DNA of 64,000 nucleotides from Escherichia coli (lineage in GTDB: Bacteria; Pseudomonadota; Gammaproteobacteria; Enterobacterales; Enterobacteriaceae), in the NCBI RefSeq assembly GCF_050920415.1, contig NZ_CP169309.1; one strand, 5' to 3'. Under the pieces are notes generated by a model, which ran no database searches, had not been told where the DNA came from, and saw only the letters and a program-made list of their open reading frames with translations. How positions within the stretch are numbered: position 1 is the first letter of the stretch; each line of letters begins with the position of its first letter. A program made the position numbers and the translations under genes. Of this stretch, positions 19,160-61,546 are shown piece by piece.

Positions 19160-20400
19160 CCAGGGAAAGATTACGAAAGCCCGCTCCCCGCAAGGACTGA
19201 CGCCAGATACTTTCTGTCCATGGCTGCTTTTCGCATCTTACGTCTTAACCCTGCCTTGAATACCTTATCATTCGTCAAAATATTAATAGCGATGTGCCGT
19301 ATCCCTGAAAATAATTCTGCTGCATTTCCTCTTCTTATTTTGCAGTCGTCTTCATTCATTACCACGTCCAGACGCCAGTGCAGCTTATTCTCCACGTGCC
19401 AGTGATTTCGGATCGCTGTGGCGAACTTCTCTGCGGTTAAATCAGCAGAACTGATATAATATCTGACCGTCATTTCTGGCTCTTTCTTTTGTTCTGCTAT
19501 TATTGACCGAAAGGAGACTGCCACGCATAATTTCTTCAGACCTTTCCATTCAAACGTGAAATCAATAAGTTCATCAGGGACATCGCAAACAATATGAAGA
19601 CGGATTTCTTCTCTGCCGTGACTCTTTTCACTAATTGCGTAACTGTCATGCTCTGGATTATTTAATTCTTTCAGCGGAAATTTTTCCTCGAAGGCTTTAT
19701 TTAGCCGCCCCTGGTTTCCTTTTACAGCGAATAAATAATCACCTCCCTGTTTTTGTATCTTCTCTGCAATATCTTTCTGGCAACCCATCGCATCAGTTGT
19801 GATGATTTTTCCTTTAATATCCAGCATGTTAAGAAGTTCTGGGATAGCTGTAATCTCATTGGATTTCTCATCCGTCTTGATCTGTCCGATGACCAGACTG
19901 TGCATTGTTGAGAACGCACTAATGACATGAATCGCTCCCCTGCGGCGACTCTTGTCATAAGAGTGCCGGAGCGTTTTTCCATCAATTGCAATGACGTCTT
20001 TATCATCTGAAGAATGACATTCACGCATCCGGTTAATAAAGCATTCGTGAAATTTTGCAGGACTGATACATGATACAACTCTGGCAATAGTATCGTGAAC
20101 AGGAATACCATTTTCAAAATCACCATATTGCTTCAAAAAATCGAGATGAGTTTCCCCGAAATCCTCTATATCTTCCCAGCCTTCTGCACCCGAAATAACG
20201 GCGCAAATAGTCAACAGTAGAATATCCGATAATTTATGCTCCACTTTCCAGGCTTGTCTGTAATCGGGGATAATAGAAATATGTTCCATCAATTTTTTAA
20301 GTTCCATTTTGTTCTCCTTAATTATGTAAGGAGTATTTGATCATGTATAAGCAATAAAAAACAGCTTCAGGTAATGAGGAATATCTCAATTTTTAAACAT
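19160..20400 (-). mobile_element. ISAs1-family (H-repeat) element; ends not resolved
   Basis: Inferred from the transposase ORF; terminal inverted repeats were not identified by eye. Confidence 0.45.
19171..20307 (-). CDS. ISAs1-family transposase (H-repeat-associated protein, YdcC-like), intact
   Basis: 378-aa [65 protein letters not shown]...; matches the H-repeat protein family. Confidence 0.85.
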
Positions 20401-20476
20401 AAAATGCGAATTGTTTAGTACAAAAAAGCAGCGTTAAGTGAGTAGGCCACCGGAACCTCCCCGACAGCCTCTCGCA

Positions 20477-20510
20477 GAACCGTACGTGAAACTCTCGCTT
20501 CATACGGCTC
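20477..20510 (-). ncRNA. Group II intron domain V (catalytic hairpin)
   Basis: Minus strand reads GAGCCGTATGAAGCGAGAGTTTCACGTACGGTTC: AGC triad, GAGA GNRA loop, flanking GAGC/GTTC helix. Confidence 0.8.
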
Positions 20511-20513
20511 CCG

Positions 20514-21836
20514 TCAGGCAAACGCGCTTCCTGGTCCTGCTTTCCAGTGGGCAAACAACTCCGGCTTCTCTTTTGACAGTCTTTCCATTAGCTGACACGC
20601 CTTCGTCTTTCTATACCACAGGGTTTTATATTTCTTTCTCGCCCACGCAATCAGCGTCAGATTAATATATCTGCATACTTTCTTCATCGCTGATTTGTGG
20701 TATCTCGCGTAATAATTCAGCCACCCCGATATTATCAGATTCAGCCACTTCGCAATATCTTCGAGACTCATCTCCACCCTGCGTCTGATCCACAGTTTCC
20801 TGAGTTTTCCAATCATGCCTTTCTGCGCACGGTTACTCGCCGCCGGGCTGAAACTCGTAAAGAGGTTTCCCCGCCGGTGGTTACGTGCTCTTCGCGCTCT
20901 GAACGTATACCCCAGAAAATCAAACTGCACTGTTTCATGGTTCGCCTGTCGTTCGCTGTCTTTGCAGTAAACTATTTTCGTTTTCTCCGGATGTAATTCC
21001 AGTCCACATTCCTGAAAACGTTTTGCCAGCTTATTCAGTAATTCCTCTGCCTGTTGTTTACTGCCACAATGAATTAATCCATCATCTGCATAACGGCACC
21101 AGGGAATTTCCGGATAATGTAACGTCAGCCATTTATCAAACACATAGTGCAGAAATAAATTCGCCAGTACCGGGCTGATGACTCCACCCTGTGGCGTACC
21201 TTTATTTCTTTCCTTCAGTGTTCCATCCGGCATCTGCACCGGCGCTGTCAGCCAGCGGCGAATAGACAGTCTTACCCATTTATCCGCACAATGTTTATCT
21301 ACTGCCCTGAGTAATAAATCGTGGGGGATATTATCGAATAACCCTTTAATATCAAACTCAAGACACCAGTCGTATTGCCAGCAACGTTTTCTGGTGACTG
21401 CTATTGCATCCAGCGCTGATTTTCCATGCCGGTATCCGTATGAATCATTCAGGAAATAACGCTCCACTAATGGTTCAAACGTTACCAGCACCGTCATCTG
21501 CGCTATTCTATCGCTTACTGTCGGTATTCCTAAAAGTCTTTTGCTGCCATCCTTCTTCGGAATTTCCACCGCACGCACTGGCGGCGGCATCCAGCTTCCC
21601 GACGATAACCTGTTCCAGATTTTGTACAGATTTCCTTTCAGATCCCGCTCAAAATCTTTCAGCGTCTGGTTATCCACTCCGGCAGCTCCGGCATTCGCCT
21701 TTATCCGCCGGTACGCTTCCACCACATGCAATTTACTGACCTGAAACGGTTTTGTCTGTTCACACACAGTCTCCTCCTGCCTACAGTTGGGCTGTGATGC
21801 AGACTGCCCGACGCTGTCCCTTCGCTCCACGTTCAT
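20514..21836 (-). CDS. Group II intron reverse transcriptase/maturase, no endonuclease domain
   Basis: Track ORF 20514..22031; RT domain 0 at LHVVEAYRRIKANAGAAGVDNQT, fingers GTPQGGVISPVLANLFL, palm WCRYADDGLIHCGS (YADD), C-terminal X/maturase-like block GWLNYYARYH; likely start near MNVERRDSV. Confidence 0.85.
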   Translation of the reverse strand: MNVERRDSVGQSASQPNCRQEETVCEQTKPFQVSKLHVVEAYRRIKANAGAAGVDNQTLKDFERDLKGNLYKIWNRLSSGSWMPPPVRAVEIPKKDGSKRLLGIPTVSDRIAQMTVLVTFEPLVERYFLNDSYGYRHGKSALDAIAVTRKRCWQYDWCLEFDIKGLFDNIPHDLLLRAVDKHCADKWVRLSIRRWLTAPVQMPDGTLKERNKGTPQGGVISPVLANLFLHYVFDKWLTLHYPEIPWCRYADDGLIHCGSKQQAEELLNKLAKRFQECGLELHPEKTKIVYCKDSERQANHETVQFDFLGYTFRARRARNHRRGNLFTSFSPAASNRAQKGMIGKLRKLWIRRRVEMSLEDIAKWLNLIISGWLNYYARYHKSAMKKVCRYINLTLIAWARKKYKTLWYRKTKACQLMERLSKEKPELFAHWKAGPGSAFA

Positions 21837-22398
21837 TACAAACGCTTCCTCACTACTACGAACAGCTCTGCCCCGGTTTCGCACATCGATACTCTCATAC
21901 TCATAATTTCGGTTATTTGTAATTCTCTCTTGACATTGCGACGACCGGTTCCCGTAGTTCCTGCAAAGAGCCCGATACAGCGTCATGCCTGCTATACACC
22001 GGACATCATTCACGCAGCATTCGGAATTCACCCGTAAATTAATCCCGGCGGTATCACGAAACCTCCGGTTTTGATGTCACTTAGGACTAACGACGTTTCA
22101 ACACAGGTTCGGGTTTACTCATCTCACTGTATCTCACATAGGATCAGATCTCGTCTGATCGTTCCCCCTGCGCTCACTACCATGGCTCTTTACCACAGCA
22201 GCCGGGGTTGTTTGGGACCGACTTCCGACAGCAGATCCCGGTGGGCCTGCCACCATCTCTTCACAAGCTTATGCTTATTACATGCAAAACGTCCCGTTTT
22301 GCATCTTTGTGCCTACGGCACACCGTGATCTTTCCCTGGGAATAAAAGAAAGTTCACTGTAGTTATTAATGATATTTACTTCTTCATTCATATTTTAC

Positions 22399-22788
22399 CT
22401 ATTTAGAAAAACATATGCTCGCTTCCTCCGTGATAGAGATAACATAATCAGGTATTATTTCAAATACAGGAGTAATTAAGTATGGTCTGGAGTAACCATT
22501 ATTAAAATCCACACTATCAACTAAAAAACTAATAATGCTATCTTTGTCAGAAACAATCAATGATTCTCGGTAATAAGTTTTTTTACCTTTATTTCTCACA
22601 ATATTCAGTGCAATGTAGAATCTATCGTCTATCATAATGTCAGAAAGATTTTTAACATGATCTACCCAAGTGATGCTTCGACATTGCTCTTTTTTATTGA
22701 GCATTGCAAAAAAAATATCTTCTTTCACTTTCTCACTTGGTAACTGACTTAAAGGTTTTATACCTGTAAATATAAATTTAGTTTTCAT
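22399..22788 (-). CDS. Hypothetical protein, AT-rich orphan ORF (129 aa)
   Basis: Open frame in strongly AT-rich DNA (stop codons are AT-rich, so long ORFs here are non-random); no recognisable motif. Confidence 0.5.
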   Translation of the reverse strand: MKTKFIFTGIKPLSQLPSEKVKEDIFFAMLNKKEQCRSITWVDHVKNLSDIMIDDRFYIALNIVRNKGKKTYYRESLIVSDKDSIISFLVDSVDFNNGYSRPYLITPVFEIIPDYVISITEEASICFSK

Positions 22789-22818
22789 ATTGGCTAATTC
22801 GTTTGAAGAGTTGCTACT

Positions 22819-23241
22819 TTATTCAATCCAGTAAGCTAGTCGCTCTCCAGAACTTAGATTTTCCCTTTTGTAATAAAATACCGTATCGAAATTAAGTGAA
22901 ATGTTTGCCGCTATAACTTTAAACTGTAATATTGACTCGGAATAAAACTCGAGAATAATATTAGCATCATTATCATCGTTAATTATTTTTAGTTTCATAA
23001 AATCATCAAGAGGATCACAAGTCCAGTGCGTATCACCACTCATGTAAGATGGTGCATTTATTATTATTTCAAAATTATGATAGTACGAAAGATCACTACT
23101 GCCAACGATAATTAATCGCCCATTACTATAGAGATAAATTTCAAAATCTATCCAACAGTTATTTCTGTAATTACGCCTAATTTCGTCCACTACATTTTGT
23201 TGTTTCATTTTGGATTCTTGTAAAAGATAATTACTACGCAT
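22819..23241 (-). CDS. Hypothetical protein, AT-rich orphan ORF (140 aa; alternative start MKQQNVVDEIRR near 23208)
   Basis: Co-directional with neighbours; no recognisable motif. Confidence 0.5.
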   Translation of the reverse strand: MRSNYLLQESKMKQQNVVDEIRRNYRNNCWIDFEIYLYSNGRLIIVGSSDLSYYHNFEIIINAPSYMSGDTHWTCDPLDDFMKLKIINDDNDANIILEFYSESILQFKVIAANISLNFDTVFYYKRENLSSGERLAYWIE

Positions 23242-54923: not shown

Positions 54924-56267
54924 TTAAAGCAAACCACAGCGACGTTTACTGCGTTCTTCCGCTTCCTGATAAAGCTGGAACTCATCCAAAACCGGGCAGC
55001 CCAACGCCTGCTCAAATGCTTCGCGACTGGCATTACCGTGACTGCGTGCCTGCGTTTCATTACCCAGATTTGACTGGAAGATCCCCGCCGCGCTAACGGG
55101 CAAGAAATCTTCATAGGTAATGGGTTGCGCCACTATCCAACCACGTTCAATTAAGGGCTGTGGATCGTCTCCGGGATGAATCGCCTGACGATGCGCCTCA
55201 CCCGAAGGCGTCAAACGGTACCGGAACCATGCCAACCCTTGCTGACGCATTAAAAACTCACTGTCAGGAAAAGTGCGGAAGGTTTCCTGTAAATGCATTT
55301 GGTGAGTGAGATTATCCTGCCCGGTTCCAGCGTTCCGCAGTAGATCATCATACAGTTGTCGTCCTTTCGGCGTTAATGCCACGCCACGCTGCTCTATTTC
55401 ACCAAAGCGCGCGGTATGCGTGCCCTGTTTCTGCCCCGCAAACAACACCGTCTCTTCCAGTGCTTTAAAGCTGGTCTGGCGTAGTAAAATCGGTACCTCG
55501 CGGCGCGGCGGCCCTTCGATCAGAATTTTGGGTTCAATTCCGCATTCAGGCATCATCGACTGCACCCGGTCAATATCCAGCGTGCGTGGCGTCAGGTGGT
55601 TGATATGGCATCCAGGAAAACAGACCACATCAGCAATCAGCCGATGTTCGTTATGCAAGGCGCGATAGGTTACTTCATCCACCGTTGCTGACTGGTGCCA
55701 GCGAAACGTTTCCAGGGCTTCCTGCACAAACTCCTGTGCCTGTGTTTCGTTAAAACCGCCCCGCTGCTCATACTCCTCTAACAGTTGTCGACAACGTGGG
55801 GTGAAGATATCGCGCTGACATAGAATCTCCGCCGCTTTCTGGCGCAAAAATTCGTTCTCGATAAGCTCCAGGCGGAGTAATGAGGTAAAAACGCGGAAGG
55901 GATTACGCGCCAGAGAAGCATCATCAATGGGCCGAAATGCTGTGGAATGTACCGGCACCCCCGCCTGCGAGAGATCGTAATAGCTCACCGGGTACATCCC
56001 CATAATGGCAAACATCCGCCGAAGAGTAGCAAGCTCTTGTGCAGTCCCAACGCGAATTGCCCCATGACGTTCAACATTCAGTCGCGCCAGCTCGTCTGCA
56101 TTTACCATTTTTTCGTGCAGTTGAGGATTGTTTTCCAGCACAGCCAGATTCACATCAGCTACCAGTTCCAGCAGCGTGCCGTACTGCGGAACTTCTTGCT
56201 GGTACATGGCTGACATTGCCTGCGAAAACTGTTCCCGAATCTCATCCGCCGTGATGCTGTTCGCCAT
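54924..56267 (-). CDS. ydcJ: DUF1338-family protein
   Basis: Track ORF 54924..56282; conserved start MANSITADEIREQF. Confidence 0.8.
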   Translation of the reverse strand: MANSITADEIREQFSQAMSAMYQQEVPQYGTLLELVADVNLAVLENNPQLHEKMVNADELARLNVERHGAIRVGTAQELATLRRMFAIMGMYPVSYYDLSQAGVPVHSTAFRPIDDASLARNPFRVFTSLLRLELIENEFLRQKAAEILCQRDIFTPRCRQLLEEYEQRGGFNETQAQEFVQEALETFRWHQSATVDEVTYRALHNEHRLIADVVCFPGCHINHLTPRTLDIDRVQSMMPECGIEPKILIEGPPRREVPILLRQTSFKALEETVLFAGQKQGTHTARFGEIEQRGVALTPKGRQLYDDLLRNAGTGQDNLTHQMHLQETFRTFPDSEFLMRQQGLAWFRYRLTPSGEAHRQAIHPGDDPQPLIERGWIVAQPITYEDFLPVSAAGIFQSNLGNETQARSHGNASREAFEQALGCPVLDEFQLYQEAEERSKRRCGLL

Positions 56268-56483
56268 AATGTCTGCCTCCATTGGTCAGTAATCTGGAGT
56301 GTAGGTAACCACATTCACTCTGGCGGGAAGAATTTACAAACTGTGATCTCGCCGCGAAAACATCAATATTATCCATTTTCCTGTAACGCAATTGCTTTAA
56401 TTGTTAATAATATTTTGCAATCAAGTTATCATAATCAAACAACTTCACTTGTCAGCGACACCGCTTCGTTTTTAACATCGCTT

Positions 56484-57407
56484 ATGGAAAAAAATAGTCT
56501 GTTTAGTCAGCGCATCCGTTTGCGCCACCTTCATACATTCGTAGCTGTTGCACAACAAGGAACTTTGGGGCGCGCAGCTGAAACCCTTAATTTGAGTCAA
56601 CCTGCGCTCTCCAAGACATTGAATGAACTAGAGCAATTGACAGGTGCTCGCTTGTTTGAGCGTGGTCGTCAGGGGGCGCAACTTACCTTACCCGGCGAAC
56701 AATTTTTAACACATGCAGTCAGAGTTCTTGACGCTATTAACACTGCCGGACAGTCGCTTCATCGTAAAGAAGGTCTTAACAATGATGTCGTCAGGGTAGG
56801 TGCATTACCTACCGCGGCGCTGGGAATATTACCTTCAGTTATAGGTCAGTTTCATCAGCAACAAAAAGAGACGACCTTGCAAGTTGCGACAATGAGTAAC
56901 CCTATGATTCTGGCAGGTTTGAAGACCGGCGAAATCGATATCGGGATTGGTCGAATGTCAGATCCCGAACTGATGACCGGGCTTAATTATGAATTGCTGT
57001 TTCTTGAATCGCTGAAGTTGGTCGTTCGTCCCAATCACCCACTGCTTCAAGAGAACGTAACGCTAAGTCGGGTGCTGGAATGGCCTGTCGTTGTATCACC
57101 AGAAGGTACTGCACCACGCCAGCATTCAGATGCATTAGTGCAGAGCCAGGGCTGTAAAATTCCTTCGGGCTGTATCGAAACGCTGTCTGCTTCGCTATCT
57201 CGTCAACTTACGGTTGAATACGACTACGTGTGGTTTGTCCCTTCTGGCGCTGTAAAAGACGACCTGCGTCATGCCACGCTGGTGGCCCTGCCTGTTCCGG
57301 GGCATGGTGCAGGCGAACCGATCGGAATATTGACCCGCGTAGATGCGACGTTCTCTTCCGGTTGCCAATTGATGATTAACGCTATTCGAAAATCAATGCC
57401 GTTCTGA
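56484..57407 (+). CDS. ydcI: LysR-family transcriptional regulator
   Basis: Track ORF 56343..57407; conserved start MEKNSLFSQRIRLRHLHTFVAVAQQGTLGRAAETLNLSQPALSKTLNELE (HTH). Confidence 0.85.
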   Translation: MEKNSLFSQRIRLRHLHTFVAVAQQGTLGRAAETLNLSQPALSKTLNELEQLTGARLFERGRQGAQLTLPGEQFLTHAVRVLDAINTAGQSLHRKEGLNNDVVRVGALPTAALGILPSVIGQFHQQQKETTLQVATMSNPMILAGLKTGEIDIGIGRMSDPELMTGLNYELLFLESLKLVVRPNHPLLQENVTLSRVLEWPVVVSPEGTAPRQHSDALVQSQGCKIPSGCIETLSASLSRQLTVEYDYVWFVPSGAVKDDLRHATLVALPVPGHGAGEPIGILTRVDATFSSGCQLMINAIRKSMPF

Positions 57408-57412
57408 AAAGT

Positions 57413-57445
57413 AAGGGATCTTTCGATCCCTTCTTTGATATTTTC
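57413..57445. terminator. Bidirectional rho-independent terminator between ydcI and trg
   Basis: AAGGGATCTTTCGATCCCTT hairpin with T-rich tracts on both sides. Confidence 0.5.
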
Positions 57446-59084
57446 ACGCTGTTGCGAAACTAACAGACTCACCAGCTCCGCGTGATTCTGCCAACACAGA
57501 ATGTTTGTTCAGGCGGAAAACGTCTACCGCCTCAGTTAATCGTGCAGCCTGTTCTTCAAGGGACACCGCCGCCGCTGAGGCCTCTTCTACCAGAGAAGCA
57601 TTCTGTTGCGTCACCTTATCCATTTCGGAAATCGCCTGGCTCACCTGCGTTATGCCTCTACTTTGTTCATCCGAGGCGGCGGCAATCTCCTGCATGATAT
57701 GTGTGACACTCGCGACGGCATCAACAATCGTGCTCATGGTTTTCCCTGCCGTTGCCACTTCAACCGACCCCAGGTCAATTAACCTGACTGATTCACTGAT
57801 CAAGCCTTCAATCTCTTTCGCCGCCTGGGCGCTGCGACTTGCGAGTGTCCGTACTTCGCTGGCGACAACGGCAAATCCACGTCCTTGCTCACCCGCTCGT
57901 GCGGCTTCAACGGCAGCATTCAGCGCCAGAATATTTGTCTGGAAAGCAATGCTGTTGATGACGGCAGTGATCTCGGAAATTTTCTTTGAACTCGTGGAGA
58001 TTGCTCCCATCGTTCTAACTACACCGGAAACCGTCTCCCCGCCATCGCTGGCTTTAATGGAGGCCTCTTGCGCCAGTTTGCTGGCATGATGCGCGTTATC
58101 CGCATTCTGTTTCACCGTCGCAGTGAGTTGCTCCATGCTAGCGGCAGTTTGTTCGATTGCCGCCGCTTGTTCTTCGGTGCGAGATGAAAGGTCCGCATTG
58201 CCAGCGGAAATTTCGCTGGTGCCACGATAAATCTCTTCCGCGCCCTGTCGAACAGTCCCGACTGTCATCCCCAGTGAATGCTGCATTTGCTGTAAATGAT
58301 GACTTAAGCGACCGATTTCATTACGACCCGCCGGTTCATCATTCATCGTCAGATCGCCACTGGCAATTTTTTCAATCCGTTGTGCGGCATGTTGCAGTGG
58401 ACGAATGACGATCCGACGTAGCACCATAAATGTTATCAGCGTCATGACCACGGCAAGCACAAACGCGCCAATCATAAACATCACACCCAGGCGGGTACGC
58501 TGATGGGCCTGTTCCGCCAGTTGGTTGGCTCTGGTGCTACGTATCTTAACGGCTTTGTTCAAAATATCGGTATAAGCATTATCCAGCGGTCGGATCTGCT
58601 CACTTTCATGATTGATAATCGCTTCAAACATGCCATTTTTGGCATATTTCAACATAGGTTGCATACCCGTGATATAAGCCTGGAAACGTTGATTTAATTC
58701 AGCGTCGAGAGCTTCATCAGCAAGTGTTTTCACCGGCCGACTCTGGTAAGCCCGATAACCTTGCTGCGACTGTTTAATCTCCGATTCGGCTTGCGCAATA
58801 TTTCGCTTCATTGCTTCCATTTCCGCAATACGACTCGCCGCCCCGGCCTGAATCATATTGATCCGGGCCGAACGCAAAAAATCTGAGCTGTTCGCTAACC
58901 CGGTCCGAATCTCAATCTCCGCAGTCACATCACGCTGATCGCGATCGGCCTGCCAGAGGAAATAGCCAGCCAGGGCTGAACTCAAGGCAAACAGAAGTAA
59001 GATACCGCCAAGAATGCAGGCAAATAACGGAACCAGCCTGATGTGATGCAAAAAACCTAATCGCTGTGAGGGAGTTGTATTCAT
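57444..59084 (-). CDS. trg: Methyl-accepting chemotaxis protein III
   Basis: 546-aa [40 protein letters not shown]...; HAMP and MCP signalling region. Confidence 0.9.
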
Positions 59085-59366
59085 TACCGTTGTCTCTCTT
59101 CCAGGTTTACTCCTGATAGAAAGTCATCGGCATTTGACGGTAATTACTTACGACTAAAAACCTCTTTGCGTCACATTTTTACAACAATTATTGCAGAGAA
59201 GATTAATGCCATTGGATTGAAGAAAGTGAGGAATGGTTAAACTGGCTAACCCGAATGACGAAAAATTCTGGAAAACAGCACGCTATTTCGTGAAGTGATT
59301 ATTTTCGTCCCTAAGGAAACCTCATAGGATGCCTGCGGGTGCCTGTACTGCCCCCCTTTTTACGCT

Positions 59367-59540
59367 TCAGTTAGTGCATGTTTTTTTCGATGCACTAATA
59401 GAACCATCATTACAGACAAATTTGCCGCCTGCTGTACAGTGAGAGATCCCCCCTTTCGAACCAGAGCAGGGTTTGCGCCCGGCATCGGCATAAAAGGAAA
59501 CAAGCGCTCCCATAACCAAGATAAGTGCCAATTTTTTCAT
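59367..59540 (-). CDS. ydcA: 57-aa secreted Cys-rich small protein
   Basis: My translation of the minus strand: MKKLALILVMGALVSFYADAGRKPCSGSKGGISHCTAGGKFVCNDGSISASKKTCTN; below the ORF-track threshold. Confidence 0.7.
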   Translation of the reverse strand: MKKLALILVMGALVSFYADAGRKPCSGSKGGISHCTAGGKFVCNDGSISASKKTCTN

Positions 59541-59710
59541 ATAACCTCCATGGTTTATCGAATCTTATGTTCGATTTGAACGTTATACGCTGGTTTATTT
59601 TGATACCGTTGATGAGATCAAAGAACGGGTGAATTGATTAAAGATAAGCCAGATGGGCATATGGACAAGGATTATGGTTTTATTTGTCATACAAATAAAT
59701 ATAATAGGCG

Positions 59711-59775
59711 CTTCCGATGTAGGCCCGTATTCTTCGCCTGTACCACGGGTCGGTTTTAGTACAGGCGTTTTCTTT
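59711..59775 (+). ncRNA. rydC: RydC Hfq-dependent small RNA
   Basis: CTTCCGATGTAGGCCCGTATTCTTCGCCTGTACCACGGGTCGGTTTTAGTACAGGCGTTTTCTT matches remembered RydC, including the terminator hairpin CGCCTGTAC...GTACAGGCG plus U-run. Confidence 0.75.
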
Positions 59776-59784
59776 AAATATCCT

Positions 59785-60315
59785 TCAGGAACGTTTACGC
59801 GGCATCATGCGTAGAAGTGTGTTGTCCTTCCAGAAATAGTGGTGTGCCAGTGCAGCCGCAGCGTGCAACCCGATGACAAAATATCCCAGATTCGCCAGCG
59901 TCTCATGCCACCACTTTAAGCTATCAACCCGTTCGAAATTGGCCTCTGCTGCGTAAGGCATTGTCATACCAAACGCAAACCATGGGTTGCCCCGGTTATA
60001 CATCATCACCAAACCAATCACTGGTAGCGCAATAAACAGGAGATAAATCACCAAATGTCCCAAATGTGCCAGTCCCGTCATCATCGGTTTTGGTTTAGGT
60101 ACAATCGGCGGAGTTGGGTATTTAAGCCTTAACAAAAGACGAACAACCATCAGCACGAGAATTGAGATGCCACAGGAAACATGAATCATGTTGATGAGCG
60201 GCCGATCGCTACGTGGGAAGAAACCACGAAACTCCATTGCGCAATACGCTGCGATAACCAGCAAAAAGACCAGCCAGTGAATGCCGATTTGTAACCTTGA
60301 ATATTTACTTTCCAT
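59785..60315 (-). CDS. cybB: Cytochrome b561
   Basis: Track ORF 59785..60351; conserved start MESKYSRLQIGIHWLVFLLVIAAYCAMEFRG. Confidence 0.85.
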   Translation of the reverse strand: MESKYSRLQIGIHWLVFLLVIAAYCAMEFRGFFPRSDRPLINMIHVSCGISILVLMVVRLLLRLKYPTPPIVPKPKPMMTGLAHLGHLVIYLLFIALPVIGLVMMYNRGNPWFAFGMTMPYAAEANFERVDSLKWWHETLANLGYFVIGLHAAAALAHHYFWKDNTLLRMMPRKRS

Positions 60316-60503
60316 AACATTTCCTGCTTTAACATAATTTTCCGTTAACATAACGAGCTTTTCTTAAAATTTCATTAAATTTTGTTCACCCGTTTTCAGT
60401 ACGTTACGTTTCACGGCAAGAATGTAGATTGCCCATCCCGCCATCCTGGTCTAAGCCTGGAAAGGATCAATTTTCATCCGAACGTTCCTGACAGGAGAAG
60501 ACC

Positions 60504-61505
60504 ATGAGTAAAGTTGGTATTAACGGTTTTGGTCGTATCGGTCGACTGGTGTTGCGTCGATTACTTGAAGTCAAAAGCAACATAGACATTGTCGCTATTA
60601 ATGATCTCACTTCCCCAAAAATTCTCGCCTACCTGCTGAAACATGATTCAAACTACGGACCGTTCCCCTGGAGCGTTGATTTTACGGAAGATTCACTTAT
60701 CGTTGATGGAAAAAGTATCGCGGTTTACGCCGAAAAAGAGGCTAAAAATATTCCATGGAAAGCGAAAGGCGCAGAAATCATTGTCGAATGTACTGGCTTT
60801 TATACCTCCGCCGAGAAATCGCAGGCGCACCTTGATGCTGGTGCGAAGAAGGTGTTGATTTCCGCCCCTGCCGGTGAAATGAAAACCATCGTTTATAACG
60901 TCAATGACGACACACTGGATGGCAACGACACCATTGTTTCCGTGGCGTCATGCACCACTAACTGTCTTGCACCGATGGCCAAAGCCTTGCACGACAGTTT
61001 CGGAATAGAAGTCGGCACGATGACGACCATTCATGCCTATACTGGCACCCAGTCACTGGTGGATGGCCCGCGAGGTAAAGATCTACGCGCTTCACGTGCA
61101 GCGGCAGAAAATATCATTCCCCACACTACAGGCGCGGCAAAAGCCATTGGTCTGGTGATCCCAGAACTGAGCGGCAAACTGAAAGGTCATGCGCAACGCG
61201 TACCCGTGAAAACAGGTTCGGTGACTGAACTGGTGTCTATTCTTGGAAAAAAAGTGACTGCCGAAGAGGTGAACAACGCGCTTAAAAACGCGACAAACAA
61301 TAACGAGTCATTTGGTTATACCGATGAAGAAATAGTCTCTTCTGATATCATTGGCAGCCATTTCGGGTCGGTGTTTGATGCCACGCAAACCGAAATTACC
61401 GCCGTGGGCGATTTACAGCTGGTGAAAACGGTCGCCTGGTATGATAACGAATATGGCTTCGTCACGCAGCTTATTCGCACCCTCGAAAAATTCGCTAAAC
61501 TCTGA
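60504..61505 (+). CDS. gapC: Glyceraldehyde-3-phosphate dehydrogenase, intact 333-aa frame
   Basis: [22 protein letters not shown]... (NAD-binding GxGxxG); active-site context SCTTNCLAP. Confidence 0.9.
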
Positions 61506-61511
61506 CGAGCA

Positions 61512-61541
61512 AAGGCGGAGGGAAAAGCCTCCGCCTCTTTC
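61512..61541 (+). terminator. Rho-independent terminator after gapC, shared with convergent aldA
   Basis: AGGCGGAGG-GAAAAGC-CTCCGCCT hairpin followed by CTTTC. Confidence 0.5.
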
Positions 61542-61546
61542 ACTCA

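Follow-up and report, generated by a model that had tools for sequence, protein, structure and literature searches.

The hokB/sokB module is missing from the trg-cybB interval of Escherichia cryptic clade I, very probably through one old deletion

Chromosomal hok/sok loci encode type I toxins, and the stable toxin mRNA of such a pair is expected to kill cells that lose the active pair. In E. coli K-12, HokB takes part in persistence linked to Obg and ppGpp. The hokB locus of K-12 MG1655 lies in the 619-bp spacer between ydcA and trg, which is annotated with hokB, mokB, sokB and yncP (locus ids b4428, b1420, b4429 and b4774); a sequence-only reading of the DNA studied here had placed hokB/sokB at this position in K-12, in agreement with the annotation. 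The same region encodes RydC, a small RNA that regulates cfa and other targets in an Hfq-dependent manner. RydC, YdcA and hokB/sokB have all been described already, and variation in the presence or absence of chromosomal hok loci is well known. The K-12 loci hokA, hokC and hokE were reportedly counted by Pedersen & Gerdes in 1999 among the chromosomal hok loci that are inactivated by insertion sequences or decayed.

We have compared this locus with the corresponding region of a 64-kb stretch of E. coli DNA (the window). Its trg gene (57444-59084, minus strand) is an intact ORF for a methyl-accepting chemotaxis protein of 546 aa; it is annotated as trg in strain MFDS1022581, which is 100% identical to the window, and shares 95.6% nucleotide identity with trg of K-12. 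The cybB gene (59785-60315, minus strand), encoding cytochrome b561 / superoxide oxidase, was recognised as an ORF and from the annotation of the same identical strain, and is 96.4% identical to its K-12 counterpart. By eye, a candidate sigma-28-like promoter for trg, TAAGTAAT-N11-GCCGATGA, can be read at 59124-59150 (minus strand), the FliA promoter consensus being TAAAGTTT-N11-GCCGATAA; a trg promoter of the sigma-28 type thus probably still stands beside the deletion described below. The window also contains an intact 333-aa glyceraldehyde-3-phosphate dehydrogenase ORF, gapC (60504-61505, plus strand), which is a pseudogene in K-12 and is intact in most of the genomes inspected.

Both small genes named by the sequence-only reading, a 57-aa Cys-rich secreted peptide on the minus strand and RydC with its terminator on the plus strand, are present as intact orthologues of the K-12 genes. 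The ydcA ORF (59367-59540, minus strand) encodes a small secreted or periplasmic protein that matches the NCBIfam equivalog NF007462 over residues 1-57 of 57 (144.8 bits, cut-off 118). The family was called by NCBIfam, the Pfam copy used here having no YdcA model; PF27300 (YdcA) is precomputed for a protein identical to that of the window, which RefSeq names 'YdcA family protein', its relatives being called 'periplasmic protein'. A signal peptide predicted by eye would be cut between ...YADA and GRK (MKKLALILVMGALVSFYADA followed by G), leaving a mature protein of 37 aa with four cysteines. The window ORF thus has the length and synteny of the YdcA family (NF007462 / PRK10040 / PF27300) and is a full-length equivalog, differing from K-12 YdcA by two amino acid changes, F9V and T12A, both in the signal peptide. 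The same variant is widespread in E. coli. Its use for finding relatives of the window was uninformative, as most carriers are hokB-positive and all of the loci returned are ∼95% identical in trg.

RydC, including its terminator, occupies 59711-59774 (plus strand) and matches Rfam RF00505 over model positions 1-64 of 64 (90.5 bits, gathering score 48, E = 2e-17). Its end lies 10 nt from the cybB stop, the same distance as in K-12, and a T-run is found at 59766-59776. A single substitution separates it from K-12 RydC, G13 in the window against A13 in K-12; the stem is preserved with one G-U pair where K-12 has A-U, and the 5' seed CUUCCGAUGUAG is the same in both. G13 is also found in E. albertii and E. 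whittamii, and A13 of K-12 is therefore the derived base. In E. albertii NBRC 107761 rydC-cybB is kept (locus 5405-6008), and the 5.4 kb beyond rydC, away from cybB, showed no homology to ydcA, hokB or trg.

The spacer between trg and ydcA in the window (59085-59366) is only 282 bp long as against the 619 bp of K-12, and the module that fills the K-12 spacer is absent from it. Pairwise alignment with K-12 shows a single clean indel between flanks that are ∼95-96% identical: about 342 nt of K-12, containing yncP/hokB/mokB/sokB, correspond to 4-5 nt in the window, a net loss of 337 bp. An Rfam scan (E≤10) over window positions 56000-64000 recovered RydC and found no match to the hok leader/Sok RNA family RF01794, whereas the identical scan of the K-12 locus gave sok RF01794 at 109.7 bits. 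When HokB, Hok(R1), MokB and YncP were compared by tblastn with all 64 kb, only chance matches were obtained (best E = 0.13), none of them in the spacer; the same holds for the overlapping mok frame, for which MokB gave chance matches alone across the window, and the control, HokB on K-12, was found at E = 9e-31. Three short ORFs (21-37 aa) in the spacer have no Pfam match, K-12 HokB itself being assigned to HOK_GEF (PF01848) at 1e-23. The window thus has no Hok/Gef ORF, no RF01794 RNA and no mok frame with which to make up a hok/sok module. The sequence-only reading was right in seeing no Hok-like ORF in the spacer and in judging some 280 bp too short for the module, and K-12, with its longer spacer, does not contradict it. 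The absence applies to the 64-kb window, and the rest of the genome may hold further hok loci.

That reading had called the locus 'absent or replaced', and only the first of these holds, as nothing else, be it a gene, an RNA family or a mobile element, has taken its place. Replacement by a different small toxin or sRNA could be entertained on account of the three short ORFs and of a weak terminator-like hairpin flagged at the 3' stub of hokB, but the spacer aligns base-for-base with that of K-12 (∼95%) except for 4-5 nt, and it has no Rfam or Pfam matches. The hairpin, which the two terminal stubs of the transcript (GGGTGCCTG and GCCCCCC, from the tac and fbi arms) are able to form with 5 bp, folds at -5.1 kcal/mol (z = -0.7), which is indistinguishable from shuffled sequence; we rejected it as a functional terminator or mini-RNA, and consider replacement of the module extremely improbable.

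The boundaries of the deletion can be placed exactly, and both ends of the hokB transcript remain. A relic of the hokB promoter and upstream region (59275-59336, plus strand) aligns with K-12 directly 5' of GGGTGCC, and corresponds to the ∼60-70 bp upstream of the K-12 hokB transcript start; the same ∼70 bp lie within a tandemly repeated unit of E69 and E. whittamii (see below). The relic is followed on the same strand by GGGTGCCTG (59337-59345), which alignment identifies as the first 9 nt of the hokB mRNA and of the Rfam leader model (the 5' 'tac' arm); the RF01794 alignment on K-12 begins at GGGUGCCUGAGA. Next comes TACT (59346-59349, plus strand), a 4-nt junction filler that is absent from both hokB ends, and then GCCCCCCTTTTT (59350-59361, plus strand), the 3' terminus of the hokB mRNA with the 'fbi' arm and T-run, as seen by comparison with O157:H7 and K-12, which end in ...CATGGCCCCCCTTTTACAC and ...CATGGCACCCCTTTTACAC, respectively. 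A diverged hokB 3' end was rejected as the source of the filler, all hokB 3' ends, those of the outgroups included, reading ...TTTTCTCATGGCNCCCC. The deleted stretch thus runs from +10 of the hokB mRNA to ∼12 nt short of its 3' end.

What is left is the hokB promoter, now an orphan, in front of a 25-nt stub. Compared with the K-12 locus, the window has the same position, and the upstream promoter region and both transcript termini can still be recognised in it, but it lacks the ORFs of the toxin and of YncP, the Mok frame, the GC hairpin and the Sok antisense RNA with its promoter. The hokB remnant is therefore a relic and no longer a module, and ydcA now stands without the downstream yncP ORF and without the GC hairpin that was formerly common to it and hokB.

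The distribution of this allele was determined with a 57-nt query across the junction, each side being too short to score alone. Of the 5,426 complete E. coli genomes, only four matched it end-to-end, namely MFDS1022581, which is 100% identical to the window, together with N96, 2013C-4282 and WL297. Over 8 kb the four carriers are 98.3-100% identical to the window (98.3-99.9% in the case of 2013C-4282), whereas carriers and window alike share ∼94-96.5% with K-12, O157:H7 and a B2-type strain; K-12, O157 and B2 strains are 97.6-99.1% identical among themselves in cybB. Strain 2013C-4282 is among the complete genomes of cryptic clade I, a sister lineage of E. coli sensu stricto (PMC10100065). 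Judged from the 8-kb region, the window belongs to Escherichia cryptic clade I. We had also tried window positions 20000-23000 as a lineage probe and dropped them, the matches being to multi-copy mobile DNA and uninformative on lineage. This segment contains a group II intron reverse transcriptase/maturase gene (ltrA) adjoining or inside an ISAs1-family ISEc1 (ydcC-like) transposase gene; the intron/ISEc1 segment is multi-copy in E. coli, and the whole 3 kb is contiguous only in strain MFDS1022581.

Contigs in a collection show the same picture. All 24 contigs examined of those encoding the window's exact Trg (211 collection blocks) have the 282-bp gap, as do all 25 examined of those encoding the Trg of 2013C-4282 (1,065 collection blocks). 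Two junction alleles were seen, one with TG and the other with CT at the neighbouring positions 59344-59345. Allele A, that of the window, reads GGGTGCC-TGTACTGCCCCCC and allele B reads GGGTGCC-CTTACTGCCCCCC. The corresponding sub-lineages A and B differ at 98 sites in 8 kb, with six adjacent pairs among them. Both carry the deletion, which must therefore be older than their split, and it looks like a single event. In sub-lineage B (2013C-4282 and WL297) RydC differs from that of the window at 59730, 59732 and 59745, two of the changes being in the loop region and one beside the stem. An assembly or sequencing artefact, in which a collapsed or mis-joined region hides hokB, has a negligible probability given that four genomes finished independently of one another share the junction with all 49 contigs examined, which come from many samples, and that it exists as two stable alleles. 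The deletion, present in all of the clade I genomes and contigs that were examined, is fixed there, and the hokB-less allele is a marker of this lineage and not a peculiarity of one strain.

As the allele sits in the sister lineage of E. coli sensu stricto, it could be asked whether the site was empty in the ancestor, with the module entering E. coli sensu stricto later. A search of genome contigs with a degenerate RydC pattern yielded six loci from Escherichia. Three of them, which serve as outgroups, have hokB between ydcA and trg: E. whittamii (two tandem copies), E69 (two tandem copies) and SCPM-O-B-8794 (one copy), the latter two being cryptic-clade genomes. The trg genes of these three are 82-85% identical to that of K-12, compared with 95.6% for the window. 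The presence of hokB at the identical position in more distant species, together with the ∼60 bp of promoter homology and the first 9 and last ∼12 transcript nucleotides kept in the window, makes the hokB-less state a derived deletion. An ancestral empty site is thereby ruled out for practical purposes, and we leave it only a very small probability, even though conservation of hok between species above the level of its flanks could hint at mobility. One old deletion has thus very probably removed the yncP/hokB/mokB/sokB module from the trg-ydcA-rydC-cybB region of clade I.

The outgroup loci have features of their own. The tandem hokB copies of E. whittamii (locus ∼958-1783) and E69 (locus ∼1551-2389) are 91-92% identical to K-12 hokB and belong to a repeated unit of ∼495 bp, which combines the module with ∼70 bp of promoter and a linker of ∼80 bp. 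Between species the hokB module is 91-93% identical, and the flanking trg, cybB, ydcA and spacer only 75-87%; this pattern of identities suggests either that the RNA is under strong constraint or that the module has been exchanged.

Other lineages of E. coli have lost or inactivated hokB in other ways. The region was matched in 5,416 genomes, in 3,947 of them over 80% or more of its length; with the exception of the four junction carriers, these 3,947 match in two pieces with hokB between them. The remaining ∼1,470 genomes are heterogeneous. At least 309 complete genomes, including the type strain ATCC 11775, carry a B2-type deletion (seen in one such locus at 5833-5843) that arose in two steps and truncates both trg and hokB, trg having lost ∼400 N-terminal codons and hokB its 5' half. 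In UID2309220027 (locus 1089-1281) we see an intermediate of this type, which has undergone step one and has IS150 at +76 with the hokB ORF intact. The filler of the B2 allele was considered as an IS remnant and rejected, since it is spacer DNA stranded between two successive deletions. In FDAARGOS_1249 (locus 6186-7361) an IS5-family element lies between trg and gapC, and hokB, ydcA, rydC and cybB are missing.

Nineteen genomes matched only positions 1-43 of the junction query. The one inspected, K-12 HMS174 (locus 2527-3969), has IS150 directly after GGGTGCC, at +7, with a GCC target duplication; IS150 is also present at hokB +76 in two other genomes, in the same orientation as the +7 insertion and with the target site duplication AAC. 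At least three independent routes of decay are thus observed at hokB: the clade I deletion, the B2 two-step deletion, and IS150 insertion at +7 or +76. IS150 insertions are also what Schneider (2000) and Woods (2006) are said to have found behind the hokB/sokB events of the long-term evolution experiment. The hokB/sokB locus is named, in an indirect statement, as a recurrent target in that experiment (10.1101/027086), and among the papers covered by a literature search none joined IS150 with hokB/sokB.

The clade I junction has some resemblance to the end of IS150. The left end of the element reads TGTACTGCACCCATTTTG, and the window at the same point reads TGTACTGCCCCCCTTTTT. The filler with its neighbours, TGTACTGC, matches nt 1-8 of the IS150 left inverted repeat at 8 of 8 positions, and at 15 of 17 when the comparison is taken further on; TACT is the sole filler among the 256 possible that gives a match of at least 8 nt to an IS150 end (p about 1/256). 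Moreover, IS150 nt 7-17 (GCACCCATTTT) and the hokB 3' terminus (GCACCCCTTTT) form a direct repeat with 10 of 11 positions alike, and the +7 target GGGTGC is the inverted complement of IS150 nt 7-12 (GCACCC).

These likenesses suggest a two-step route, in which hokB would be disarmed and then deleted. IS150 would first have inserted after GGGTGCC, at +7, severing hokB from its promoter and disarming the toxin; a deletion between IS150 nt 7-17 and the hokB 3' terminus would then have removed the IS together with the module, leaving TGTACT as a scar. IS150 would in this case have been drawn to the 5' tac element GGGTGC of hokB through its own end GCACCC, and the chance likeness of the IS150 end to the 3' fbi element would have supplied the repeat for the deletion. 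Given the stability of hok mRNA, disarming hokB first should avoid killing of the cell. Multi-step decay that includes IS150 is seen at the locus in UID2309220027 and the B2-type alleles. If the route were true, clade I would have fixed the end product and strains of the HMS174 type would represent step one.

Several observations speak against it. Allele B reads CTTACTGC, without the initial TG of TGTACTGC, and its CTTACT is unlike the start of IS150; the change between A and B could have gone either way, and B to A (TGCCCT to TGCCTG) could have been templated by the TGCCTG 10 nt upstream. Only 4 nt of the match are truly informative. A second IS end, a transposase remnant and a duplicated GCC were all looked for at the junction and not found, and the 64-kb window has no similarity to IS150 anywhere. 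Intermediates with a longer IS remnant were absent from the 5,426 complete genomes and from a metagenome scan, in which the pattern GGGTGCC N0-30 CCCTTTT N0-1 ACRCTTCAGTTAGTGCAT had zero matches.

A single illegitimate deletion, independent of any IS and with a short filler that is random or locally templated, would need one event in place of two. Both breakpoints lie inside the arms of the terminal complementarity GGGTGCCTGAGA / TCTCATGGCACCC, and the long-range tac/fbi inverted repeat that brackets the transcript may have favoured such an event. A local source for the junction is also at hand in the RydC terminator, 400 bp away, whose reverse complement has a 9-nt match, GCCTGTACT; the filler could stem from a template switch to it. 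However, local matches of this size are found by 16% of random fillers as against 0.4% for the IS150 match, and the sole microhomology of the native breakpoints is TG, which would leave no filler. It also weighs against a single step that the 5' breakpoint is a documented IS150 insertion site, and that the stable toxin mRNA should select against cells in which an active hok/sok pair is lost in one step. We give the single-step deletion an even chance of being correct. That TGTACT is a genuine IS150 scar, left by the two-step route, is a serious candidate that we rate at slightly less than even.

The absence of hokB from clade I is ordinary strain-to-strain variation in the form of a lineage-specific deletion, and the possible IS150 scar, with the disarm-then-delete route that it would record, is the sole mildly new idea here and is unproven. 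As there is no HokB at this locus, Obg/ppGpp-linked persistence acting through HokB is impossible from it in clade I, a lineage in which some strains produce Stx or enterotoxin. The hokB-null junction provides an easily typed marker of cryptic clade I, and the multiple routes of decay bear on the question of whether selection maintains chromosomal type I toxins.

Nearly precise excision of insertion sequences and transposons by slippage between short repeats is classical for Tn10 and Tn5. The second step proposed for the IS150 route would be similar in that it deletes between a repeat at the IS end and one in the flank, leaving a few IS bases; it would differ in that one repeat lies outside the IS and 1.8 kb away and host DNA is lost as well, and for this locus such an excision is hypothetical. 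Set beside the IS-inactivated or decayed hok loci, the clade I allele is another natural null, possibly initiated by IS150 likewise, although it contains no IS and its removal is nearly exact to the transcript. The B2-type allele differs from it in that trg was hit there, whereas trg is untouched in clade I. Loss or inactivation of hokB is common and has occurred several times, and the clade I allele is its tidiest version.
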